The notes beneath the pieces were generated by a model. It was not told the origin of the DNA, did not search any database, and saw nothing but the letters and a program-made list of their open reading frames with translations. From sequence record OP136151.1: a stretch of DNA of 60,610 bases, one strand, 5' to 3'. Source of the stretch: Escherichia phage Pondi. Each line of letters begins with the position of its first letter. Position 1 is the stretch's first letter. Shown here one piece after another: positions 19,789-50,785 of the stretch. Made by a program: the position numbers and the translations under genes.

Positions 19789-20021
19789 TCGACTTTATGA
19801 AACTGCTGGAAATGGTACACATCGACGGTTTCCGCTGTGAAATCTCAAGCGATGATGATCGTGTTACGTTTGTCTGGCGTGGTTACGATGATGTGCTGGG
19901 TCAAACGTATGGCGTGTCACGCGTTGTCAGTAAGGTAATGATCACTCAGGCGATGGTGCCGGAAGATGTGATCGAACGCCTGGTTGACTGTGCGCGTAAA
20001 GGTCTGGAGAAGATGCAATGA
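19785..20021 (+). CDS. Hypothetical protein, 78 aa (GTG start)
   Basis: GGAG-N8-GTG; GTGA overlap upstream and ATGA overlap downstream. Confidence 0.45.
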   Translation: MIDFMKLLEMVHIDGFRCEISSDDDRVTFVWRGYDDVLGQTYGVSRVVSKVMITQAMVPEDVIERLVDCARKGLEKMQ

Positions 20022-20719
20022 TCCTCTGGTTCCTGTGTGACGGGTCCGGCCTGATGGGTCAGCCGTGGGCGGAGGCGGGTCACACCGTCTACTGCTTCAA
20101 CGCGGACGAGGGCGACCACGGGCCTTATACCCGCTTCGGGTGCCGTGTGGAGCATCCAAACATTCACTACATCAACACCTGGATTGACAGTAAGTTTGTG
20201 ATGAAAGCGATGGCGACCAGTGGCGATAAACCTGATTTAATATTTGCTTTCCCACCGTGCACGGATATTGCCGTATCAGGTGCCCGACACTTCGCCGCTA
20301 AGCTGGCAGCTAACCCAGCGTGTCAGGATGACGCTGTAGCAACTGCGCGCATTGCTGAGCGTTTGGGGCGGTGGTTCAACGTGCCTTACATGATTGAAAA
20401 CCCGGTCAGCGTGATGGCCTCACTGTGGCGCAAACCTGATTTCACTTTCCACCCGTGGGAGTTCTCCGGGTATCTGCCGGAAGGAGATATGCACCCGTTT
20501 TTCCCGGACCTGATTGCAGGTCGGGATCAGTACCCGAAAAAGACTTGCCTGTGGACTGGTAACGGCTTTAAGTATCCGAAGAAACTCCCGGTACCCATTC
20601 CGCCAGGGTACAGCGATCAGTTCCACAAGCTGGGCGGCAAGTCTGCAAAGACAAAAACCATCCGATCACTAACCCCGCGCGGCTTCGCACTCGCGGTATA
20701 TCAAGCAAATAAGGATTAA
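20018..20719 (+). CDS. Putative DNA (cytosine-5)-methyltransferase-like protein, 233 aa
   Basis: Motif I-like WFLCDGSGLMG, catalytic Pro-Cys motif FAFPPCTDIAVSG, ENV-like YMIENPV and GNG motif in the order expected for C5-MTases; short target-recognition region. Confidence 0.45.
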   Translation: MILWFLCDGSGLMGQPWAEAGHTVYCFNADEGDHGPYTRFGCRVEHPNIHYINTWIDSKFVMKAMATSGDKPDLIFAFPPCTDIAVSGARHFAAKLAANPACQDDAVATARIAERLGRWFNVPYMIENPVSVMASLWRKPDFTFHPWEFSGYLPEGDMHPFFPDLIAGRDQYPKKTCLWTGNGFKYPKKLPVPIPPGYSDQFHKLGGKSAKTKTIRSLTPRGFALAVYQANKD

Positions 20720-26878: not shown

Positions 26879-27091
26879 ATGGCGCAGCACAAGATTAACG
26901 TGTTCGGTCGTTACCTGCTATGCTGTATAGCATCGGCTGACGCACCTGTAACGTTCGATGAACTGGCCTCCTATACCGGCTACGACAAAGAGCATGTGCG
27001 CAAGGCGGTAAAGAAACTTGAAACGGCTGGAGTCGTTACTATTCACAAACCGCATCGTAAGGAGGCTCAAATTGTCGCAACATTTATTTGA
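26879..27091 (+). CDS. Small winged-helix-like DNA-binding protein, about 70 aa
   Basis: DELASYTGYDKEHVRKAVKKLETAGVV resembles a wHTH; start uncertain (weak RBS). Confidence 0.35.
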   Translation: MAQHKINVFGRYLLCCIASADAPVTFDELASYTGYDKEHVRKAVKKLETAGVVTIHKPHRKEAQIVATFI

Positions 27092-27560
27092 GCATCATTT
27101 CAGATACGACCCCGTTACCGGGAAACTGTTCTGGAAAAGGCCAACGGCGAATTGCATGAAGCCGGGTGATGAGGTAGGCGCTGTAAACTTTGACGGTTAT
27201 CGCCAGTGTTATTTCAAGTGTAAGCAGTATAAAGTTCATCGCATAATATGGGAGATGTGTCACGGTACGGCACCCGATGGATTCATCGACCATATCAACG
27301 GTATACGTGATGACAATCGTATTGAAAATTTAAGAATCGCAACATCCGCTGACAACGGGAGGAATAGAGAACGTTTATATCGAAACAAGCTGGGTGTTAA
27401 AGGGTTGTGTGTAGGTAACGGATCGTACTGCGCTTATGTGTGCGACAATCGAAAATACTTCCCTTTAACTGAAGAAGGTAAACGCCTCGCCGTGGAATGG
27501 TTACAGGCTCAACGACTGGCACATGGAGAATTTGCCAACCACGGAGAACACAAAGCATGA
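27072..27560 (+). CDS. HNH homing-type endonuclease, about 162 aa (TTG start)
   Basis: RYDPVTGKLFWKR and HRIIWEMCHG...IDHINGIRDDNRIENLR match the HNH motif; AGGAGG 6 nt upstream of TTG. Confidence 0.7.
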   Translation: MSQHLFEHHFRYDPVTGKLFWKRPTANCMKPGDEVGAVNFDGYRQCYFKCKQYKVHRIIWEMCHGTAPDGFIDHINGIRDDNRIENLRIATSADNGRNRERLYRNKLGVKGLCVGNGSYCAYVCDNRKYFPLTEEGKRLAVEWLQAQRLAHGEFANHGEHKA

Positions 27561-28313: not shown

Positions 28314-28342
28314 AAACTAAGGGCGCTTATGCGCCCCTTTTT
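28313..28342. terminator. Bidirectional rho-independent terminator between convergent genes
   Basis: A-tract, stem GGGCGC/GCGCCC with TTAT loop, then T5 tract; lies between plus gene ending 28313 and minus gene ending 28327. Confidence 0.65.
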
Positions 28343-28515
28343 GCAACCTCACGTAACAACCGCAGTGTCCCGTCGTCTTCCTCCAGCACAAACGTAGCGC
28401 CCTTCACTTTGTTCAAAGCAAACGACAGGTTTTGTTTTGGAACGTCGAGCACTTCAGCCGCAGCCGTTAACGAGCGGTGACCTTCAATCCATTCCTTCAG
28501 TGGTGTGATTTTCAT
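28327..28515 (-). CDS. Small HTH DNA-binding protein (Cro-like), 62 aa
   Basis: RSLTAAAEVLDVPKQNLSFALNK resembles an HTH; GGAGG RBS. Confidence 0.45.
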   Translation of the reverse strand: MKITPLKEWIEGHRSLTAAAEVLDVPKQNLSFALNKVKGATFVLEEDDGTLRLLREVAKRGA

Positions 28516-28542
28516 ACATCCTCCTTTGTCAAGTAATCCATT

Positions 28543-29037
28543 CTACTTGGTTCCTTTGAAAGTGCCAATTCTTTTTTCGCCCAGCTTACCCGGTTCAAAC
28601 ACAAACAGCACTTGTCCCAGGTTGTTTCCGGCTACACGCTTTCCGGTAACGGGGTGAATGAAGGCCACACGCCCGATACTAAACCTGGCCTCTGAGCAAG
28701 CCTCCAGCGCCTTGTGAAACCAGCGAGCACCAGTCTGTGCGTTGACGATTGACACCACGCCACGGTCCGATTCGCTGCACTGTATCCACTGATCCACCCA
28801 CGGGTCCACGAAGGAGAACGGCGGGTTGTTCCATACCCATTTACCTTCCGGGCAGAAGTCCGCCCAGTTAAAACCTAACCCCTGCTTAAAATACAGGGGG
28901 AACTTTCTGTTGTGCTCATCTGCCGCCGCGTCGATTGCGAAATCGAACTCCAGCGACAGGCGATCAATCAACCACTGGGGCGTACCCCAGCAATCGCGTA
29001 ACTCCTTTGGTGTCTTGCTTGCGTAGAAAGGTTTCAT
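28543..29037 (-). CDS. DNA N6-adenine methyltransferase, phage Dam family (T1-type), 164 aa
   Basis: CWGTPQWL...FDFAIDAAA...WVWNNPPFS matches the compact phage Dam-family signature with NPPF catalytic motif; ATGA-coupled to primase-helicase. Confidence 0.7.
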   Translation of the reverse strand: MKPFYASKTPKELRDCWGTPQWLIDRLSLEFDFAIDAAADEHNRKFPLYFKQGLGFNWADFCPEGKWVWNNPPFSFVDPWVDQWIQCSESDRGVVSIVNAQTGARWFHKALEACSEARFSIGRVAFIHPVTGKRVAGNNLGQVLFVFEPGKLGEKRIGTFKGTK

Positions 29038-31445
29038 TCGTACAGTATCCCGTTGTCTGGTTCTTCAATCGGTCGAATAAACGCACCACGCAGTACGCGA
29101 GTATCACCCTCGTATCCGACTTCAATTTCGTCCATAGCATCAATCATACGGGCGAATGCGCCGAGACTACGGGTACCGCCGCCGTCATTATCAGCCGCCC
29201 AGTCACGGTAGCGTTTGAAGACGTCAGACAATGGTGCCCAGGTACCTTCACGAACAATCAGCGCTGACTGCACGAACACGTCAAGTGGAGACGTTGCCGC
29301 TTTGAATACGCGGATGCGTTCTTCCATACATTCGTGATTCTTCAGGCGCTTAACTTCACGCAGCTTTTTAAGACCTGCAATAGCCCAGTTGATGATACCC
29401 GGCATTTCCGCACGCAGCTTTTCAGTAAGGTCTGAATCTTCACGACCTTTAAATGAGCGCGGCGTGTGGAAGAACAGACCACGCTCGACCATTGCTGACG
29501 ATGACTCTGACAGGTTAGGGATGGCGTTACATGTCATGTTCAGACGACAGCGCATCGTAACTTCAATCGTTGACTGATATTTACGGTTGATGCGCACGTC
29601 GTCCTGGCCGACGATGTTTTTGATACGGTTGACCACGGCTGTACGGTTAGCCGGAGACGGATCGGATACGTCGTTCAGGAACGCGCCGAGTTTATCGTAC
29701 ATACCTTGCAGGTGCGCTTCGTTGGTCAGGTTGTCCAGCGTAGGCGACGCGCAGTTGTGGCTACCTAACATGGCGTGAAGGATACGCATCATTGTCGACT
29801 TACCGGAACGGGCCACGCCTGACATAATAAGCATCTTCTGCTGGGAAATATCATCCGTAAGCATGTAACCGAACCACATCTGCAACTGTTCAATGAGCGG
29901 TTCATATTTAGACTGGCCCCATACGCGATACAGGAACGCTTCCCACTGCGGACATGTCGCGGTAGGGTCGTAAGAGTACGGCAGGTGTGCACGAATACGG
30001 ATGTCCGGGCTATGAGCGATCATAGTGTTGCCATTGTTGATGTCCAGGATACCGTTGTCGAATGCTATCAAACCGGAAGTGTCGCGGTCAGGATCGTTCT
30101 TAAACTCAGGCCATTTAGCCGGAGCCTGTACGATGAGATGGTTTTTAATCATGCTCACTGTACCTTTAACGTCGGAGTCGCTCGGTGCTACCAGTTCCAT
30201 CTCACGGGCAACCATACCGTTAATCCAGCCGGGGGCCACGCTTTTGAATACTTTACCGTCGAACATGTAGAACTGATCTTCGCAGATGATGATCTCACCT
30301 TGTGCCGAGTTCTCAAGCAAGAATTTCTGAGCGTTCGTTGTATGGTTTTTGCTGTAGTCGATAGTGTCAACCAGCACCTTACCACTTTTACGCGCTTCAA
30401 CCACTGCGGCAGAAATGTCGGCAGCTTTCGGTGCTACTGCGGTTACGGTTTCCGGCACATAGATAGCCTGCTCAACTGGAGTCAGTGACATACCCGGCAG
30501 TATTGCGGCCTGCTCAGTGAGACGTGCAGCAAACGAGCGTGCACCCACACCATTCTGGCTGTACTTGTAAACGTTCTGGACGGTCGGCCACATCTCATCG
30601 CCCCACGGCGGTTCGTTGTTAGCGTCCCAGTAGTCAATCATTAACTCGTAGGTTTTCTGCGGTGACAGTTGGTAGTCACGTCCGGCTGCGGCAGTCTTAA
30701 ACAGCACATGGTTACCACCCTGGCCGCTAATGGATTGCTCGGCGCGCTCCTTCAGGTAGGTGATAAACTGTTTGCAGTTGTGATCGTTGTCGTCGAAGTC
30801 ATCCATCCCGCCCACGTACTGAGCGCTGCGCTGGCGTACCCACTCGCCCATCTTCATCATCTTCTCGTCGGTCAACGTGAAGCGTGAGATAACGTCGCGC
30901 AGTTTGTAGCGTGGTATGTCAGCGTGGAGTTCCGCCAGTTCGTAGAGAACGCGGTTGTCCAGTGACTTCTGGTGCATGAATCCCGGTACACGCATAACGC
31001 GGTCAGGGTTTACCATTGACTCGTCGCTACCGAAGTGCAGAGCGATCTGCTTCTGTGCGATCATCCACTCCATAGCAGAGCAGTCGCCGTCGATAAACCA
31101 GTAAGCGTGGAAGTGCGTGTCGTCGCGCTTGACGATAGCGTGTGGCGGAATAGGCCACTGGTCCGGGAACGGAGCACCGTCACTGTCCATGAAGACAGCG
31201 CGGAAGATGTCGATGTCATTCTTACCACGACCGCCTGTAGTCGAACCATTGACAGACGTGAACACGCCACAGCCGCGAGCCTGAAGGTCAGCCAGCTTTG
31301 TCGGATTCATATACGCGTATTCCCAGCCAGCCAGGTCGCGTCGGTCTTTGTCATAGTCACAGAACCACTGCCATACAAGCGGCGGGTTTTGCATTCCAGT
31401 TAGCGCGGCATAAAACAACTGCGCCTGTTCAGGCTTATAGGTCAT
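29034..31445 (-). CDS. Bifunctional DNA primase / SF3-type helicase (prim-pol N-terminus, D5/P4-like C-terminus), 803 aa
   Basis: N-terminal Asp- and His-rich primase-like region; C-terminal Walker A GVARSGKST and P-loop NTPase architecture. Confidence 0.65.
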   Translation of the reverse strand: MTYKPEQAQLFYAALTGMQNPPLVWQWFCDYDKDRRDLAGWEYAYMNPTKLADLQARGCGVFTSVNGSTTGGRGKNDIDIFRAVFMDSDGAPFPDQWPIPPHAIVKRDDTHFHAYWFIDGDCSAMEWMIAQKQIALHFGSDESMVNPDRVMRVPGFMHQKSLDNRVLYELAELHADIPRYKLRDVISRFTLTDEKMMKMGEWVRQRSAQYVGGMDDFDDNDHNCKQFITYLKERAEQSISGQGGNHVLFKTAAAGRDYQLSPQKTYELMIDYWDANNEPPWGDEMWPTVQNVYKYSQNGVGARSFAARLTEQAAILPGMSLTPVEQAIYVPETVTAVAPKAADISAAVVEARKSGKVLVDTIDYSKNHTTNAQKFLLENSAQGEIIICEDQFYMFDGKVFKSVAPGWINGMVAREMELVAPSDSDVKGTVSMIKNHLIVQAPAKWPEFKNDPDRDTSGLIAFDNGILDINNGNTMIAHSPDIRIRAHLPYSYDPTATCPQWEAFLYRVWGQSKYEPLIEQLQMWFGYMLTDDISQQKMLIMSGVARSGKSTMMRILHAMLGSHNCASPTLDNLTNEAHLQGMYDKLGAFLNDVSDPSPANRTAVVNRIKNIVGQDDVRINRKYQSTIEVTMRCRLNMTCNAIPNLSESSSAMVERGLFFHTPRSFKGREDSDLTEKLRAEMPGIINWAIAGLKKLREVKRLKNHECMEERIRVFKAATSPLDVFVQSALIVREGTWAPLSDVFKRYRDWAADNDGGGTRSLGAFARMIDAMDEIEVGYEGDTRVLRGAFIRPIEEPDNGILYE

Positions 31446-31454
31446 GAGATAACC

Positions 31455-31649
31455 TTATTTATTAGAGTTCAGTACCGTGATAGCAATGTTCAGGCGCGCG
31501 TCAGGGATAACACCGCAATGGCCTTTCATGTATACCGCCAACGTGCTGATCTTATATCCGGTAGCGGCCATCACTTTTTCAAAGCCAAACTCTTCGATAA
31601 GTTCAGCCAGCTTCTGGTTGTTCGGGTGTAACTCTTTATTACTTGCCAT
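31455..31649 (-). CDS. Hypothetical small protein, 64 aa (possible HTH)
   Basis: ORF between VRR-NUC-like and primase genes. Confidence 0.4.
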   Translation of the reverse strand: MASNKELHPNNQKLAELIEEFGFEKVMAATGYKISTLAVYMKGHCGVIPDARLNIAITVLNSNK

Positions 31650-32049
31650 TTTTAAATTCCTGAATGTAGTAGTCGATATGGGTTACGTCGGTTACGAAGC
31701 CTGCGATACCACCTGCCTGTCGCCAGTCGAGGATGCAGGCGTGCTGGGCTTTCGCTCGTTTGTCTCCCGGTGTCATGTGCCAGCCTGGTTTCTTAAATTC
31801 GAATCCGGTTAACACAAGAAACGTGCGACCTACCATCTCAGGCGTAATGGTGATTGGCGTGCCGCCGATGGAGTCGGGTGACTTCCACACTTCGTTGAGT
31901 TGCTTGGAGTCATTGCCGAGTCCAAAGCGAACAAGCGTACCGTTGCGGTCTGGCAATGCACCGGAGTTGTTGCGATACAACAAACCCTTGTACTCGCGCT
32001 GCATCTTCATCGCGCTGTGGTCGAATAGCTTTTTCTCTGCTTGTGACAT
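31639..32049 (-). CDS. PD-(D/E)XK nuclease, VRR-NUC-like, 136 aa
   Basis: PD...FEFKK (PD-ExK) followed by QHACILDWRQAGG (Q-x3-L-x3-G) typical of VRR-NUC; GGAGG RBS. Confidence 0.4.
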   Translation of the reverse strand: MSQAEKKLFDHSAMKMQREYKGLLYRNNSGALPDRNGTLVRFGLGNDSKQLNEVWKSPDSIGGTPITITPEMVGRTFLVLTGFEFKKPGWHMTPGDKRAKAQHACILDWRQAGGIAGFVTDVTHIDYYIQEFKNGK

Positions 32050-32177
32050 GGTAATTCCTCCAGTGAGAAACCGAGCATACAGTATTTAAAATACTTTGAA
32101 AAGAATTTTATAAGCCGTAAAGTAAATCAATCACGAAACATGCGATGACCGTACTGACAAACACCCACTCCCATAAT

Positions 32178-34046
32178 TTACGCATAGGTCAAGCCTCCTT
32201 TGGCATGAATCTCTTCGAGGTGTGCTTTGATTTTCTCAATCAGTTCAAAGCACTCTTTAGGTTTCAGCACCTGCGCATAGTAGACGTTGATGCCGAAGCG
32301 GTTTAAGAAAAGCTGTTGTGCGGCTTCCTTAGTTACATCACCTTTCTGGTGGTGCTCCATCCATTCGTCCTGTAATAGTTGACGAGTAGCGTGCATTGCG
32401 CGCCAGCGGCGATGGTTATTGATCTGAGTGTTCTTAGCGATAGCTGGTACGTGCATCCGGGTTACGTATTCTTCGGGTGACATCTTCAGTTTGAGTAAAT
32501 CTTCCTGAATCTCCTGACGCCACACCGCAGCCTGGTCGCTGATGGACTCGTCACCCGCTCGCATCTTTGCCAGTTCTTCCGCCGACACTTCTACTAATTG
32601 ACCTTTAACCATGACGGGTTCACCACGCGGGGCCAGAGGCTGTCGGCAGCCGCAATCAGGACAGCGTGACTCGGTAATTTCGTAGATATATCCACACGGT
32701 CGAATCCCGTTGTTAAATTGTTCGTCAGCCGACATAACTGCACATTGCTCAGGTGTGAACCTGCCGGACTTGTCGACAGGGACACGACAACGGGTAACCG
32801 GAACTGTGTCATCATCGCTGCTCGAAGACTTGCCACCTTTTCGGTCTGCCATTGACCAGACGCGGGGCTTATCGGGAAGGCCATGCTCCCGCCAGTTTCC
32901 CACATGGTCGAGTATAATCGCATAATCTTTACCGGGCGAAGGGCGAAGCACCCTGCCGAACGCCTGCATGAACCAGGATAAAGACATTGTGCGTCGCAGA
33001 AATTGTGCTGCCTCAATTGCAGGTAAGTCGAACCCTTCTGAGACAAGATCAACGGTAACGAGCACAAGTATTTCACGGCGCTCGAAAGCCTGGAGGGTCT
33101 TGAAACGTGTAGATTCATCATCGCCTCCGTGGAGTACGGCGGCTGGTATCCCTGCTCGCTGGTAAGCATTGGCCACAGACTGAGCGTGGGAGATGTCACA
33201 GCAAAATACAATTGTGAGTTTTCCATTGATGAGTTCCTGGTAGTGGCGCACTACATCGCCAGTGATTTTAGCCTTGTCCATCTCACGCGCCTGGTCCTGC
33301 TGGTTGTAGTCACCTCCAGCCGTCACACGCACCTTAGTAAAGTCCGCCTGTTCCGTAGGTGGCTCATAAATTTTATAGTCGCACAAGTTTCCTTCGTCAA
33401 TCAGCCAGCGCATCTCTGGCCCTTTGATTACCACGTCGACGATTCCGCTACCGTTGAGCGCTACACTCCCCATACCTTTACCGTCGGCACGTTCCGGTGT
33501 TGCAGTCACCAGCAAATAGCGCGCTTGAGGATTCATATATTGCAGAGGGCGACCGAAGGTGTTGTCGCGTGTCAGGTGGTGCGACTCATCGAACACACCA
33601 AAGGTGCAGCGCATTAATAACCGAAGCGTGGCCTCGCGCATGGCTTTGCGCTGTGGGGTAGCCTTCGGATTTTCTTTCAGTCGGGCGTTGACGGTCTGCA
33701 CAGAGGCCACGATCACTGGTGCACCTGGGCGATAGAATGTACGTCCGAACTTTGCCTGCTGTACGTTACCGCAGATAGCGCGAGTCTTCTCACTGCATAT
33801 AAAGTCGTGATGCAAATCTTGTGTCGCCAGACTTTCTGATATTTGACGCACCAGTTCCGAACGGTGACAGAAGATGATGCACATGTGACCAGCGTTGACC
33901 ATCTGTTCTACTATGCTGGTGAAGCAAAAAGTTTTACCTGCGCCCGTACTCATTATGATGACAGGTGCCTTATAGCCTGAGTGTAGGCAGGTGAAATACT
34001 CATTGATAACCTTCGCCTGATAGGGGCGCGCGGTACGTTTTGCCAT
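32178..34046 (-). CDS. SF2 DExH-box DNA helicase with C-terminal Cys-rich zinc-finger region, 622 aa
   Basis: Motif I MSTGAGKT, motif II DESHH, motif VI QAFGRVLR; C-terminal CRVP...CPDCGC. Confidence 0.8.
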   Translation of the reverse strand: MAKRTARPYQAKVINEYFTCLHSGYKAPVIIMSTGAGKTFCFTSIVEQMVNAGHMCIIFCHRSELVRQISESLATQDLHHDFICSEKTRAICGNVQQAKFGRTFYRPGAPVIVASVQTVNARLKENPKATPQRKAMREATLRLLMRCTFGVFDESHHLTRDNTFGRPLQYMNPQARYLLVTATPERADGKGMGSVALNGSGIVDVVIKGPEMRWLIDEGNLCDYKIYEPPTEQADFTKVRVTAGGDYNQQDQAREMDKAKITGDVVRHYQELINGKLTIVFCCDISHAQSVANAYQRAGIPAAVLHGGDDESTRFKTLQAFERREILVLVTVDLVSEGFDLPAIEAAQFLRRTMSLSWFMQAFGRVLRPSPGKDYAIILDHVGNWREHGLPDKPRVWSMADRKGGKSSSSDDDTVPVTRCRVPVDKSGRFTPEQCAVMSADEQFNNGIRPCGYIYEITESRCPDCGCRQPLAPRGEPVMVKGQLVEVSAEELAKMRAGDESISDQAAVWRQEIQEDLLKLKMSPEEYVTRMHVPAIAKNTQINNHRRWRAMHATRQLLQDEWMEHHQKGDVTKEAAQQLFLNRFGINVYYAQVLKPKECFELIEKIKAHLEEIHAKGGLTYA

Positions 34047-34104
34047 CTCGATGTTCTCTTATATGTGTGTTGACGATGAGGATAATAAAATTTTTAAAAA
34101 AGTA

Positions 34105-34134
34105 TTGCAATCGGTTTTTGGTTGAGTGTATGAT
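34105..34134 (+). promoter_or_regulatory. Promoter candidate in divergent intergenic region (TTGCAA-18-TATGAT)
   Basis: AT-rich 140-bp region between divergently transcribed helicase and gene 34187. Confidence 0.3.
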
Positions 34135-44165: not shown

Positions 44166-47100
44166 TTAAAACAACATCCAATATTTGTCACTCAATTCTT
44201 TCGCCAGTTCGTTCTTCTTGACCTGCAAGGCATCCAGTTCTGCACGCTTCGCTTCAGGTGACATACCGTCGTTCGCGTAAATCTCTTTCGTCTGGCGGTT
44301 GTACTTCTGCATCCGGGCAACGCCTTTCTCAATTGACTTACGGGCAGACAACACGCTGGCCTTCTCGGTCTTAAACTCCCGATACGCCTGCATGTTCTTC
44401 TGGTCTTTGTACGCCTTCAGGGTACCGTACGTTTGACCAGCCTTCTCGCTCATCTGGTACAGACGGTCGGTGTATTTGTCGCCGGACACACCGCCACGTA
44501 CGAAAGTTTTTACCACCGGGTAATCAAAATCCTTTTTAGCCGGGGCAACTTTTTCGGTACCCGTTCCTTTGCGATAGGCCACGTCCGTTACACCGACGAT
44601 GTACTGACCGACTGTCCCGGTGTAACCCTCAATCATATGCTGGAGACGCAGCGGACTACGCATCCATTCCGGGGCAGCTTCAGGTAACGCCTTGCTCATA
44701 TCCTTAATCCACTCAGGCGTCGTGGTGCTGTGCTGCTGGTTAGCTTCCAGACGTTGCAGTGACTGCGGTACGATTGGACGCTGAGTAAAGCTATTCATGT
44801 TGGTCTGGTCTTCGTAGATCGGCTTGAAGAACTGAGGCCAGTCTGCCGCAAACGTGTTAGACAACATGAAGCCCAGGCGTGCACCAAACATACGGTCGTC
44901 ACGGTACAGCGCTTCGAATGCACGCTCAGGAATAGTGCCGAACAGTGCGCCCAGTTCGAACGGTTTCGGGATACGGTAGCGAGTGTCGCCAGCGAAGATG
45001 ATCCAGAAGGAATCACGCTCATGTTCTGGCAGCGCCCAGTAACGTTCGTCGTCCGCGTTCATTGCCATAAGGGCCATCGTTGCACCAACAAGTAGAGCAC
45101 CTTTCAGCATGAACGCTTTCGGGTTCTCTTTACCACCACGTACCATACGGTCCAGACCCTGCACACGGGCATTCAGGAACGGTATCATCGCCATCGCTGC
45201 TTTGGTTACACGGCTGCTACCACGGCGGCTGAAGTTCAGCACATCGTTAGACTGGTATGCAGCTTCCACCGGATCGCCAGTGTGCTTCAGGACGTCTTCG
45301 TACACACCCATGCGAGTGGCCTGTTCGGATGCCGTCAGCAACTTACTGTACATTTCCCACAGCTTCTTAGGTGAGTTAACGATGGTGCCGCCTTTCTCCA
45401 GCTTGCGCAGGTTTTTGGCAACCGACTCAGGACGGGAGTTATCGTAACCGCCCATCATGCCGCCAGCGACGTGGTAGTCGACAGCCATCGAGTCGTTGCG
45501 GATGGAACGCATCGCACCCTGGAACGCTTTGAAGAACGGGCGGAACGTCAGGACGTCTTTAGTGATAGCAGACATTCCGTTGCGGCCAGCGGCTTTAGTC
45601 ATCTGCACATAGTTACCCATTACGTCACGCACGAAGTTGGTCATAACGAAGTTAGGCGTTGACGTCACGGCTGCTGTGAATACACGTTTAGGCCAGCCGA
45701 GAATGTTGATGAGGGTATCGACGGCTTCCGGGCCAACACCTGCGATTGCTTCCAGCAACTGCGGGTCGGTCACTTCGTAATACTTCGCCTTGCCACCTTC
45801 ACGCACGGAGATAATGTTAGCGCCCTGCGGTGCTACTGCGGTGAACAGGTTGGAGTATTGCGCCATCTGCTCAGCGGTCATACCTTCAACCTTCAGGCCC
45901 AGGTTGGTCAGCGCACGTTTCATCTGCTCGTTGCTGATACCGACAGGCTTGAAGTTGTGCGGCACTTCTTCCAGCGCTGCGTTGATGGTAATGTCGCGCA
46001 CCTTCTGCATGGCCGCGTTCTTGTAGCCGGACGAGATCATGTGGTTAACGTTACGCGCCATGTTCTCCAGGATGTCCATTTTACCAGCGCCACCCTTCAG
46101 ACGGCGGATGCCGGAAGACTGATCAGCGAGGCCACGTTTTCCAGACGGTGCTGTTACACGGTCCACTTCCTCATCCACACGGTAGAACGGAACGTAGTCG
46201 TCGGATTCGAACAGTTTACGCTGCTCAGGATCTACGATGCCAGTTTGCTCACCGAAGTCGAGGATGGCTTTGTTAAACTCACGCCAGTCTTTGTGCGCCT
46301 GGTTGAATACCTTACGCATTTCCGGGCGACGGTTAACATAGTCGATGATGTCTTTAATCTGCTTCTCGGTGTACAGGTTTTCGCGGCCTTCTTCCATCAA
46401 GCGTTTGGCACGCACAGCACCCGCCCAGTATTCCCACACTGGCAGCATATTACCTTTCATCTCCAGCACTGGATTGAAGATTTCAGTGAAGCCTTTGGTG
46501 TTCTTGTTCAGGCTGATGCCACCGTCTTTGTATACCGGAGCGCCGTGGTTCATTGCGACGGCCACGGTGCTGTTCACGTTCTTCGCCAGCATTGCCATCT
46601 TGTACGCCGACTCTTTACCCTGACGCAGTTCACCGTTGTTACCAGCCTTCTCATATTTGGCGATGGTGTACAGGTCATCCACGCCTTTCTGATACAAGCC
46701 TTCCATCGTCAGACCGTTGTCTTTCATGATGTCTTTGATGCGCTGGAACAGAGAGCGGTCATCGCGGTACATGGTGTCACGCATACCCTGCTTGATGTCT
46801 TCGTCCACTTCCGCAGACTCGATGTCGTTTTTCTTTTTCAGGCTGGCGGCAAAGTTACGCGGCGCGCTGTACTGCATCGGCGGCAGAGATTTACGCACGT
46901 CGTCACGGTTGACAGTGTTGTCACGCAGGTACTGAGCATTGGCCTGAATAAGCTGGCGTACAGACTCCATGCTGGCGCGACCGTCAATCAGCTTGGCTTT
47001 AATCATCAACTGACGCAGAGCTTCCAGCACGCGGGTAATGACGTTGGACTTCTCCAGGATAGCTGGGTTTTCCGCAGCCAGCGCTAGGACTTCTTCAGCC

Positions 47101-50100
47101 ATCATACGCTGCGCGTCAGGTGACGACATGTCGTACAGTTCGCTGTAGCTCTCGCGCACTTCTTTGAAATACTTCGCCAGCGCCGGGGACTTATCGGCGG
47201 CCAGGATTTTATCCATCTCAGCGTCGTATTCCGGTTTAGACAGGCGAGCACGCAGACCGTAGTGTACGACAATCTCATGACGCAACAGAGCTTCCACTTC
47301 TTCCTTGCTGGTCAGGTTTTCGGAGATCAGTTTAGCGCTCACGTTGCCAGCGTCATAGAAGCCGAGCAGGACGCTACCTTCCGGCAGGTCGATACCCATA
47401 TCTTCCTGACGCTGCATGACGGTCATGTCTACAGCCTGCGCGCCTTTGAACTTCTTCAGGAAGTCGGCGGCAACCACAGCCACATCTTCCGGTGACATAC
47501 CTTGCTTATCAGACGCAGGTTTAACGCTGGCAGCACCGGACTGTTTGTCAATCTTACGCTTAGCGTAGTCCTTACCGAAAATCTCACGACGACCTTTTGA
47601 GTCTTCAGTAGCCAGGTACGTGTCGTGGATAGACTTAACGGTGAACGTCTCGCCGTCTTCCTCGAAAGTCTTACCTACCAGCGTGTGATAGTCGACATTA
47701 GGGGTAACGTCCGGCTTGTCAGTCTTCTTCGGTACGCGAGCTTCTTTGTAGGCCACGTAATGTTTGGCTGGCGCTGACATGTCACGGGAGTCAACCTTAT
47801 CACCACGGGCATACGCGCGGTCGATGGTTTCCTTCAGTGTGATACCGTCAGGTTGCATCTTCTCCAGGGCGCGGACGTAGTTGCGACGTACCAGTGGCTT
47901 CATACCACGTGTGAAATCTTCCAGTGACTTCTCGAAAGATTCAGTGCGCGCGGCAGACTTCTCACGCAGACGGTCAGCCGTCGCCTGACTTTCTTTACTC
48001 AGACCTTTCGGTGACGGTTCAGCGATACTGGACATGCGTTCTTCCAGTTCCTTACGCATGGTCGCGCGAGTCTTACCTTTCAGTGGCGCGTACAGATGAC
48101 GGTCGGATTCCGGTACCTGCGTTTCCATAGCGGCCAGGGTCTCACGCACTTTGTTCAGCGGACGCTTGGTATCGTTGACTTCATGCAGCACACCTTGCAG
48201 CGTATTAGCGTTGACACGGCTTTCCGAAGACATCCCTAAACGATCACCTTTGCCCGGCGCGTCCATCACGTTGCTGTCACCACCGCGACGAATCATGACA
48301 TCGCCGTTGTCCAGCACGAAGCGACGACCTTGCACACCAGTGATCTTGCGGACTTCACCGTGGGAGTCTTTCGCATACTTCCCGTCCAGGTCGGTACCTT
48401 CCACTGGCCCAAAACCAACACGACCTTCAACGTCGGTAACGCGAGTAGACTCACCTTCGATTGCGGCGTTATCCTTTTCCTTCTCTGCGATCATCTCACC
48501 CAGGTCACGCTGGACTTCGGCAGACTGCGCCAGTACATCGTCGGTCGCCTGCTGTGCATCGGTAACCATCTCACCCAGGTTGCGCTCGTCTTCGAACTCT
48601 ACAGGGGCTAGGTCATAACGCTCACGGGCATCTTTGGTTTCCTGAGACACACGCTTCATACCTTCCGGTACCACAGACGGCACGTTGATTTCACGGGCGT
48701 CGACAATGTGACCGTTGCCGTTCTCATCAACCAGACGTACAGCGCGGCCCTGGAATTTATCGACGGAATACTCCTTGCCGTTCCAGTTCACTTTGTTGCC
48801 GACGTCAACGCCACGCTCGTTGGCTTCCTTCAGGATCTTGTTGGTAACCTGAATAGCTGGCTGCTTCTTGCCAGGTAACGCCGGACGCACAGATTCACGC
48901 TCGATGTATTTCGCTACAGCCTCGTCACCTTTCGCCTTTAGTTCTGCCTGACGTGCTTCTTCGGCGGCCAGCGCTTCTGTATCGACTTCTGGCGCGGCTT
49001 TCTTTTTGGTACGGGCAAACAGTGCTGACTTCGGTTTAACCTCGGCAGCGGCTGGCTCAGCGGCGGGAACGGTCGGTTCCAGTGCAGCGGCTACGTCAAT
49101 CTGCGGCAGCGGCGGTGGAGTCACTTTATCTTTCGGCGGCAGTGCTGGCGGTACCACAGCTTCGGTAACCTGCGGTAATGCTGGCGCTTCCAGTTTCTGC
49201 TGTACTGCTGCCAGTACCGGAGACTCTTCAGCGACACCGCGTGGATTGTAACCAGTGGCCTCTTTAACCTGCGCAACTGGACCGGGCATAGCGATGGTGG
49301 AAGTTTGCCCCGGAGACGGCAGACCTTTAGTTTCACCCGGCAGCGGACCGACGTCACCCTGCGCTACCTGCTGCTGTACCATCTGAGCTACAGACTGCGG
49401 TGCGTTAGTGGCGCTCGCCTTGTTCGCATAGTAGATAGAGTCCGGGGAGTCGAATAGTTCGCTGACCATCTGATCCATAGCGTCGACTTCACCGACATCA
49501 CGGGATGCGGCCATCGCTTCAGCCGGAGACATACCCTGAGCGCGCGCTTCCATGTAGGCAGACTTGCGAGCTTCAGTGATTGCAGGAGACGCCTGTTCAA
49601 CCATCTGGTCCAGCACGTCACCGCCGCCCATCTCAGCACGCACAGCGTCGTATTCGTTCGGGTCCACACCTTCAACAGCCTGACCGGACTCAGCCGCAGC
49701 GTCACCGATAGCGTTGTTAACAGAGCGGTTATCCTTCCAGTCTTTGACCATGCCGGGAGCTTGCACCGCGCCATGCAGAGTAGCACCTACGCCAGCACCA
49801 GTTACACCGGAGAACGCCACGTCATTCAGGAACTGGCCTACCGTCATGTCTTCGTCGAGCACGCCGATGTCGTAACCATTCTGGATAGCCTGGGTAGCGG
49901 ATTCCTGAATACCTTCAGCTATTGCAGATTTGCCGAGATCAGTAAGGCTGTGGGCACCTTTCTTCATGATGAGGCCCAGCGGTACCGCTTCAGTAATCGG
50001 TTCCAGTGCGGCGAACATGGTTGCGCGGTTGTCGGCTTCTGCCGGAGACAGACCTTTGTCGATTGAGTCCTGATAGTAGGAACCGTACGCCTGACCAGTC

Positions 50101-50744
50101 ATCTCAGCGAGGCCAGCGACCGGGCGCTTCAACAGGATGGACGTCAGGATTGCCGGAGACATGTCCTGCGCGCCCGTGAGGATTGTGGATACCAGGTTTT
50201 TAGCTGACCACTCGTCGCCAGTCTTCGGTGCAGTTTTGGCAATTTCGTTTGACAGGCGAAGACCTTCGTCACGCGCGGCAACAAAGTCGGCATCCTTATT
50301 CAGTTCTGCGGCCTTCGCTTTATCAATAGCGGCGTAGAGAGCTTTATTCTTTTGCAGTTTGGTCGCATACGTGTCGCCTTCGGCAGCGGTAAAGGTAGCT
50401 GGGTCAATCCCCAGTTCGGCAGCATATGACGGATCGTTACGCAGGCGTTCAGCCAGCACCCCGTCAGTCAGGTCTTGACCTTTGACGGCCACGCCTTGTT
50501 TGATACCCTGCCATGAACGTTGCATACGCTCAGGCATCGCGGCGAGAGATTTGTAAATTACGTCGCCCCAACTATCTTCTTTTGCTGGTTCTGTGACGGC
50601 TGTCTCACTTCCGATACCGGAAAAGTCTACGTCACCCAGGTCGAAGTTAACTGTCGACAGGTCGATGTCAGATTTAGGTTTTGATGCAGGTTGTTGATTT
50701 GGCTGGGATAAGTCCAGTCCAGAAAGGTCGATGTTGCTTGCCAT
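44166..50744 (-). CDS. Giant virion-associated protein, about 2192 aa (putative internal/ejection protein; function unknown)
   Basis: Start at ATG 50744 preceded by AGGGGGAG (track ORF extends 13 codons further); last gene of the late operon; no Walker A, RNA polymerase or peptidase motif recognised by eye. Confidence 0.6.
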   Translation of the reverse strand: MASNIDLSGLDLSQPNQQPASKPKSDIDLSTVNFDLGDVDFSGIGSETAVTEPAKEDSWGDVIYKSLAAMPERMQRSWQGIKQGVAVKGQDLTDGVLAERLRNDPSYAAELGIDPATFTAAEGDTYATKLQKNKALYAAIDKAKAAELNKDADFVAARDEGLRLSNEIAKTAPKTGDEWSAKNLVSTILTGAQDMSPAILTSILLKRPVAGLAEMTGQAYGSYYQDSIDKGLSPAEADNRATMFAALEPITEAVPLGLIMKKGAHSLTDLGKSAIAEGIQESATQAIQNGYDIGVLDEDMTVGQFLNDVAFSGVTGAGVGATLHGAVQAPGMVKDWKDNRSVNNAIGDAAAESGQAVEGVDPNEYDAVRAEMGGGDVLDQMVEQASPAITEARKSAYMEARAQGMSPAEAMAASRDVGEVDAMDQMVSELFDSPDSIYYANKASATNAPQSVAQMVQQQVAQGDVGPLPGETKGLPSPGQTSTIAMPGPVAQVKEATGYNPRGVAEESPVLAAVQQKLEAPALPQVTEAVVPPALPPKDKVTPPPLPQIDVAAALEPTVPAAEPAAAEVKPKSALFARTKKKAAPEVDTEALAAEEARQAELKAKGDEAVAKYIERESVRPALPGKKQPAIQVTNKILKEANERGVDVGNKVNWNGKEYSVDKFQGRAVRLVDENGNGHIVDAREINVPSVVPEGMKRVSQETKDARERYDLAPVEFEDERNLGEMVTDAQQATDDVLAQSAEVQRDLGEMIAEKEKDNAAIEGESTRVTDVEGRVGFGPVEGTDLDGKYAKDSHGEVRKITGVQGRRFVLDNGDVMIRRGGDSNVMDAPGKGDRLGMSSESRVNANTLQGVLHEVNDTKRPLNKVRETLAAMETQVPESDRHLYAPLKGKTRATMRKELEERMSSIAEPSPKGLSKESQATADRLREKSAARTESFEKSLEDFTRGMKPLVRRNYVRALEKMQPDGITLKETIDRAYARGDKVDSRDMSAPAKHYVAYKEARVPKKTDKPDVTPNVDYHTLVGKTFEEDGETFTVKSIHDTYLATEDSKGRREIFGKDYAKRKIDKQSGAASVKPASDKQGMSPEDVAVVAADFLKKFKGAQAVDMTVMQRQEDMGIDLPEGSVLLGFYDAGNVSAKLISENLTSKEEVEALLRHEIVVHYGLRARLSKPEYDAEMDKILAADKSPALAKYFKEVRESYSELYDMSSPDAQRMMAEEVLALAAENPAILEKSNVITRVLEALRQLMIKAKLIDGRASMESVRQLIQANAQYLRDNTVNRDDVRKSLPPMQYSAPRNFAASLKKKNDIESAEVDEDIKQGMRDTMYRDDRSLFQRIKDIMKDNGLTMEGLYQKGVDDLYTIAKYEKAGNNGELRQGKESAYKMAMLAKNVNSTVAVAMNHGAPVYKDGGISLNKNTKGFTEIFNPVLEMKGNMLPVWEYWAGAVRAKRLMEEGRENLYTEKQIKDIIDYVNRRPEMRKVFNQAHKDWREFNKAILDFGEQTGIVDPEQRKLFESDDYVPFYRVDEEVDRVTAPSGKRGLADQSSGIRRLKGGAGKMDILENMARNVNHMISSGYKNAAMQKVRDITINAALEEVPHNFKPVGISNEQMKRALTNLGLKVEGMTAEQMAQYSNLFTAVAPQGANIISVREGGKAKYYEVTDPQLLEAIAGVGPEAVDTLINILGWPKRVFTAAVTSTPNFVMTNFVRDVMGNYVQMTKAAGRNGMSAITKDVLTFRPFFKAFQGAMRSIRNDSMAVDYHVAGGMMGGYDNSRPESVAKNLRKLEKGGTIVNSPKKLWEMYSKLLTASEQATRMGVYEDVLKHTGDPVEAAYQSNDVLNFSRRGSSRVTKAAMAMIPFLNARVQGLDRMVRGGKENPKAFMLKGALLVGATMALMAMNADDERYWALPEHERDSFWIIFAGDTRYRIPKPFELGALFGTIPERAFEALYRDDRMFGARLGFMLSNTFAADWPQFFKPIYEDQTNMNSFTQRPIVPQSLQRLEANQQHSTTTPEWIKDMSKALPEAAPEWMRSPLRLQHMIEGYTGTVGQYIVGVTDVAYRKGTGTEKVAPAKKDFDYPVVKTFVRGGVSGDKYTDRLYQMSEKAGQTYGTLKAYKDQKNMQAYREFKTEKASVLSARKSIEKGVARMQKYNRQTKEIYANDGMSPEAKRAELDALQVKKNELAKELSDKYWMLF

Positions 50745-50785
50745 TAGAAATGCTCCCCCTTGTTGATAGGGGAAGCATAGCATAT

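Follow-up and report, generated by a model that had tools for sequence, protein, structure and literature searches.

An orphan PF05869-family adenine methyltransferase gene behind the primase-helicase of a Xuquatrovirus genome and its at most narrow contribution to anti-restriction

The minus-strand open reading frame at positions 28543..29037 of the window (the whole stretch of 60,610 bp analysed here) codes, with high confidence, for an adenine DNA methyltransferase of the PF05869 family, as it matches both PF05869 and phrog_111, shares 30-37% identity with characterised Dam enzymes, and has all family-conserved residues intact. Taken as a whole, the explanation that we consider probable from sequence comparisons is a PF05869 Dam enzyme coupled to its operon, directed at GATC, and playing an accessory role. 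The protein would be a small single-domain AdoMet-dependent DNA N6-adenine methyltransferase, most likely producing m6A at GATC on newly replicated phage DNA. Such methylation would top up or replace that of the host Dam, with a narrow benefit: phage DNA might be shielded from methylation-sensitive GATC-cutting restriction enzymes where hosts have them, and, replicating fast, it might be kept fully methylated instead of hemi-methylated.

The window is an essentially complete Xuquatrovirus genome. It is collinear with phage PTXU04 throughout (77-96% nucleotide identity, in the reverse orientation and permuted), and also matches HelliStehle/Bas95. The gene and its motifs are located as follows.

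28543..29037, minus strand: predicted CDS of the Dam-type N6-adenine methyltransferase (PF05869), 164 aa, ATG start
28978-28992, minus strand (aa 16-20): CWGTP, the N-terminal family motif WxTP, read from the translation
28921-28947, minus strand (aa 31-39): FDFAIDAAA, the family motif with D36 followed by A-A
28813-28833, minus strand (aa 69-75): WNNPPFS, the catalytic motif IV, (D/N)PP(Y/F), of amino-methyltransferases

Thus, the three motifs named in the original prediction are all carried by one minus-strand frame of 164 aa. In the alignment of 85 family members, the WxTP motif is strongly conserved (W17, 87%; T19, 95%; P20, 98%), D36 is invariant with A38/A39 conserved at 78-88%, and N71, P72 and P73 of WNNPPFS are conserved at 99-100%. 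The presumed AdoMet-binding loop, FDFAIDAAA, is aligned with LDAAAS in T1 Dam and LDSAAS in the Stx-phage Dam. The window protein retains the near-invariant residues both in the N-terminal and central part (W17, T19, P20, D36, A38, A39, N43, L54, N71-P72-P73) and towards the C-terminus (S75, W106, G122, R123, F126, P129); taken by motif, the residues of WxTP, D-x-A-A, motif IV and G122-R123 are conserved at 87-100% and all are present. Among positions of this kind, it departs from the family at two, Q52 and W84. The former, occupied by Asp in 84% of the family, was considered as a possible defect and dismissed, as T1 Dam likewise has Gln. The ATG start is well supported, the N-terminus M(K/R)PFYASKTPKELRD being common to 17 homologues. 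A terminator-like hairpin, a consensus match only, lies inside the gene over codons 46-53 (28879-28899, minus strand).

The original prediction had assigned the protein to the T1-type phage Dam family and suggested a search with the PF05869 profile. This search yielded a match well over the gathering cutoff (E 2.6e-29; 102.5 bits vs 28.1; profile positions 2-148 of 169), and PF05869 includes T1 Dam as well, so that the assignment was borne out. The best PHROGs match is consistent with it (phrog_111, 'DNA methyltransferase', 8e-43). On the other hand, the score against the NCBIfam equivalog TIGR01712 (phage_N6A_met) was 96.5 bits with the cutoff at 97.05, that is, 0.55 bit short; by this score we have a divergent relative, short of a certified equivalog. 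Its divergent position in PF05869 is also seen from the bits given by the same model, 102 for the window protein vs 236 for T1 Dam and 218 for the VT2-type Dam of Stx phages. The family itself is large: a profile search at E <= 0.001 yielded 30,660 cluster representatives (50% identity), and tblastn found the family in 1,626 phage records.

The AlphaFold2 model built from the 85-sequence alignment (mean pLDDT 92.3) consists of one alpha/beta Rossmann domain, with a separate DNA-recognition domain absent. The window protein hence has the compact single-domain architecture (about 150-240 aa, Rossmann fold). A sequence search of PDB chains with the window protein gave no match, and no solved structure of the family was found. 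Foldseek with the model gave no match better than E 1e-3; the nearest solved folds are N6-adenine methyltransferases, distant ones at 10-14% identity, and these matches seem mostly to mirror the common Rossmann core.

Two close orthologues have the same length and the same operon. PTXU04_00045 (gp45) is identical at 162 of the 164 residues (98.8%) and has the same junction with the primase gene as the window; Bas95_0049 of HelliStehle is identical at 160 of 164, and differs in having a GTG start, so that its overlap with the primase gene reads GTGA. Hence, only 2-4 substitutions separate these proteins from the window methyltransferase, whereas the helicase half of the adjoining primase is strongly different. 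The two genes are annotated as 'putative N-6-adenine-methyltransferase' and 'DNA methyltransferase', respectively, and the former was described as a putative Dam with pfam05869 by Korf et al. in 2019 (PMC6563267). In the CRISPRi-ART knock-down of 2025 (PMC11879866, supplementary file 16), PTXU04_00045 was scored 'Not Fit', that is, non-essential, and the primase came out as 'Semi-Fit'. As this orthologue is dispensable, the window gene is likely accessory, or dispensable, on laboratory E. coli, a host with a Dam of its own.

Among characterised enzymes, the closest type is the M.EcoVT2Dam-type Dam of Stx phages (175 aa; phage PA50 was taken as the representative), with 37% identity over 145 columns, a similarly compact size and GATC as the reported target. 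Its gene lies in the nin region of temperate phages, between ninB and ninE, while the window gene belongs to a virulent podovirus and lies 3' of a primase gene. T1 Dam (237 aa) is 30% identical over 171 columns and shares the WxTP, DAAA, NPP(Y/F)S and GR motifs, but is extended by ~43 aa at the N-terminus and carries ~15 additional residues in front of the GR motif; its gene is likewise found in a neighbourhood of replication genes, following a helicase and ST21. E. coli Dam, T4 Dam and DpnM belong to another sequence family of about 260-280 aa with a separate DNA-recognition domain, and only ~100-110 of their residues can be aligned with the window protein, at ~10% identity.

The gene is the penultimate one in a leftward operon, whose elements are listed below in the order of transcription.

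34082..34110, minus strand: promoter-like site, candidate operon promoter, in the divergent region that precedes the helicase gene; a consensus match only
32178-34046, minus strand: SF2 helicase gene, upstream in the operon
31639-32049, minus strand: gene of a 136-aa endonuclease-like protein, upstream in the operon
31455-31649, minus strand: gene of a 64-aa protein, upstream in the operon
29034..31445, minus strand: primase / D5-like SF3 helicase gene, 803 aa, with RepB_primase, D5_N and DUF5906 (Pfam) and matches to PHROG DNA primase families
29034..29037, minus strand: ATGA stop/start overlap of the primase-helicase and methyltransferase genes (TGA at 29034-29036, ATG at 29035-29037)
28327..28515, minus strand: the last operon gene, 62 aa, with weak HTH similarity and a strong AAGGAGG ribosome-binding site
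28319..28338: hairpin resembling a bidirectional terminator (GGGCGC-TTAT-GCGCCC plus T runs); the PTXU04 annotation likewise has a terminator here

Positions 28327-34046 are occupied by one block of minus-strand genes, with plus-strand genes on either side, and the domains of the primase-helicase were found immediately upstream of the methyltransferase, in agreement with the inverted replication block that had been proposed. Consensus matches place promoter-like sites in the divergent region near 34082-34134, and the hairpin at 28319-28338 closes both the operon and the rightward early genes that converge on it. The methyltransferase gene has no Shine-Dalgarno match of >=4 nt to AGGAGGT within 25 nt upstream of its ATG; together with the overlap at 29034-29037, this fits the translational coupling suggested by the original prediction. 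Most likely, the enzyme is made by ribosomes re-initiating after the primase, as there is no own ribosome-binding site and the ATG lies on the primase stop; such re-initiation would provide a low level of the methyltransferase, timed with phage DNA replication.

The product of the 62-aa gene matches HTH_20 in Pfam at E 0.0057, below the cutoff, and its PTXU04 orthologue, gp46, is a 'transcriptional repressor' by HHpred; the gene also follows Dam in the relatives L006-L009. Just 5' of it, a sigma-70-like site with 10 of 12 consensus positions (TTGGCA-17-TAGAAT; 28540-28568, minus strand; consensus match only) is seen within the methyltransferase gene, preceding the strong ribosome-binding site of the 62-aa gene. 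No cognate restriction endonuclease is found next to the methyltransferase, whose neighbours are the primase-helicase and this HTH-like protein; the enzyme is an orphan without a partner nuclease. At the other end of the operon, the Bas95 helicase gene (L001, 11876-14740; 2,865 nt) is annotated with an intein; in the window and in PTXU04, the gene lacks it and has 1,869 nt.

T1 Dam and HP1 Dam, both of the PF05869 type, are GATC-specific. GATC is also the reported target of M.EcoVT2Dam (PMC6602927). The 30-37% identity to the GATC-methylating T1 Dam and VT2-type Dam makes GATC the likely target of the window enzyme. The genome provides substrate in its 169 GATC sites, evenly spread, with the observed/expected ratio of 0.61-0.72; this mild under-representation counts against the target reading, not being what a fully protected site would need. 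Regulatory clusters of GATC resembling oriC or pac were rejected (maximum 4 sites per 200 bp, p about 0.9).

An active adenine methyltransferase directed at some other short motif, or with relaxed and nearly non-specific recognition, seems unlikely to us, but it has several observations on its side. Identity of 30-37% is in the range where the specificity of methyltransferases often shifts, the protein is a divergent member by its bits on PF05869, it falls just under the TIGR01712 equivalog cutoff, and its model is a single catalytic domain without a discrete recognition domain. Against the last argument, the T1, VT2 and HP1 Dam enzymes are equally compact and yet GATC-specific, and near non-specific methylation would fit poorly with the strong restriction sensitivity reported for Bas95, which carries the same gene. 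Still far less probable is that the protein is no DNA methyltransferase in vivo, being either inactive or acting on adenine in RNA: none of the family-conserved residues is lost, DNA Dam enzymes are what defines the sequence family, and the fold matches are distant and mostly come from the shared Rossmann core. A different question is whether the enzyme is linked to the primase-helicase functionally, for example by joint action at the replication fork, and not just by co-expression. Metagenomic relatives of ~60 kb, with a Dam at 47-56% identity, have kept the operon, the position of Dam behind the primase persists down to 47% identity, and the overlap of the primase stop with the Dam start, in the absence of a Shine-Dalgarno sequence, could be read in the same way. 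We nevertheless regard such a link as quite improbable. The junction in the relatives is variable, with a 1-nt overlap in L008 and L009, whereas L006 and L007 have two small ORFs inserted between the two genes; family members elsewhere adjoin helicase/ST21 in T1 and NinB/NinE in Stx phages; and 4-nt overlaps are common genome-wide, found in a crude gene set of the window at 17 of the 70 same-strand junctions, with 1-nt overlaps at 6 more. Compared with PTXU04 and Bas95, the primase-helicase has 96-100% identity over residues 1-330 and only 30-80% over residues ~330-803, while the methyltransferase stays at 98-99%, so the helicase half was exchanged with no sign of co-adaptation. The coupling is hence generic and not specific to this pair of genes. 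The mosaic itself (29034-30450, minus strand, comprising the linker, D5_N and the SF3 helicase half) points to a recombinational domain swap in the primase-helicase.

The original prediction had also mentioned a C5-like enzyme, which almost certainly is the first of two adjacent genes situated outside the operon.

20018-20719, plus strand: C5-cytosine-methyltransferase-like gene, 233 aa
20723-21370, plus strand: Nmad5 gene ('nucleotide modification associated domain 5'; E 6.6e-27 in Pfam; phrog_1965), directly 3' of the C5-like gene

The C5-like assignment is supported by phrog_757 ('DNA methyltransferase', 1e-87), by motifs and by the fold. The protein has FDGSG-like, FPPC and ENP motifs, with PPC and ENP invariant in its family, and its AlphaFold2 model (pLDDT 89.4) has the DNMT3A/3B catalytic domains as the best PDB matches (E 3e-6). 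Pfam gave nothing for this protein at E 0.01 or better, PF00145 included, and it carries a variant motif, PPCT, not the canonical PCQ. The absence of a C5-like enzyme, suggested by the canonical PCQ scan and the empty Pfam result, was overturned by the PHROGs match, the fold search and the re-annotation of PTXU04_00066 as 'cytosine DNA methyltransferase'. This family is also widespread (6,404 matches; 1,511 phage records), and a PF05869 Dam is often found alongside it, as in Dhillonvirus slur05. By sequence, therefore, the window has two methyltransferase-like genes, and such pairing is common in coliphages. The C5-like and Nmad5 genes may act as a pair in base modification, as opposed to a plain Dcm-like enzyme; Dhillonvirus phages can escape the Tmn defence system through a point mutation in nmad5 (PMC11846954). 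In the distant ~60-kb relatives, a canonical 341-aa C5 DNA methylase with PF00145 was observed among early genes (L008, 9829-10854; L009, 9647-10672), on top of the Dam behind the primase.

The genome shows pronounced avoidance of restriction sites. Among the 64 hexamer palindromes, 21 are absent from the 60,610-bp window with 13-21 copies of each expected, including GAATTC, GATATC, GGATCC, CTGCAG, CCCGGG, CCATGG, GAGCTC and TCTAGA. Non-palindromic hexamers are missing in 56 of 4,032 cases in the window; GAGGAG/CTCCTC, CAAGAG/CTCTTG, GCCCGC/GCGGGC and CCCAGA/TCTGGG are absent in both orientations, and GGTCTC/GAGACC is found 1/0 times. The EcoP15I site is oriented one way: on the plus strand we observed CAGCAG 0 times and CTGCTG 82 times, across five strand blocks and any gene direction; similarly, CATCAG is found 0 times vs 27 for CTGATG in the window. 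The EcoP15I bias is common to PTXU04 and Bas95 (L001-L004) and absent in the ~60-kb relatives L006-L009; phage T7 is a known case that it resembles. Special sparing of GATC and CCWGG through the two enzymes was considered and dropped, because 4-bp and 5-bp sites are generally unpurged; the observed/expected ratio of CCWGG in the window is 1.23. The KpnI site GGTACC, with 60 copies vs about 16 expected (e.g. at 454, 29172 and 55747), was rejected as a repeat, having no common flanks and being scattered in coding DNA. Its excess probably reflects GGT-ACC (Gly-Thr) in preferred codons, and the site is clearly not selected against.

From the Dam-type and C5-like enzymes together, broad restriction protection had been proposed. 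Both genes are indeed present, and orphan methyltransferases of phages are a recognised anti-restriction device; nonetheless, we consider broad protection very improbable, and the proposal found no support. According to the paper completing the BASEL collection (PMC11990801), HelliStehle/Bas95 'is very sensitive to RM systems' and seemingly without potent genome protection; it carries the same Dam gene. Drexlerviridae carry both kinds of methyltransferases, and no pattern was found that links them to restriction resistance, and the Dam and C5 pair is common in coliphages, slur05 having both. Furthermore, the characterised members of the Dam family considered here (M.EcoVT2Dam, T1 Dam and HP1 Dam) act on GATC only, the PTXU04 orthologue is dispensable, and the massive site avoidance would be needless if methylation were broadly protective. 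Thus, the contribution of the methyltransferase to anti-restriction is narrow at most. Short of broad protection, one may imagine that the enzyme methylates a shorter or degenerate adenine motif and forms a methylation layer together with the C5-like enzyme and its Nmad5 neighbour. We give this idea a low probability; if true, the layer would complement the site avoidance and the type III orientation bias by covering short sites that cannot be purged.

Two further genes of the window deserve mention.

27018-27560, plus strand: ORF of 180 aa that carries an HNH-type motif (HINGIRDDNRIENLR); Bas95_0054 is annotated as an HNH endonuclease
44166-50783, minus strand: 2,205-aa ORF, orthologue of PTXU04_00025

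The HNH-motif ORF is present in Bas95 and missing at the corresponding place in PTXU04, and is likely a homing endonuclease insertion. The giant protein PTXU04_00025 was essential ('Fit') by CRISPRi-ART and was discussed as a putative polyvalent protein (PMC11879866).

The window Dam gene is thus already known, as a dispensable orphan of a very common family annotated in PTXU04 in 2019. Taken alone, it matters little: a version 98.8% identical was annotated in 2019 and found dispensable in 2025, and the family is tens of thousands strong. The lesson is a negative one: the presence of methyltransferases of the Dam and C5 types is no ground for assuming broad anti-restriction. For this phage group, the genome-wide avoidance of sites is far more telling about how the phages cope with restriction.
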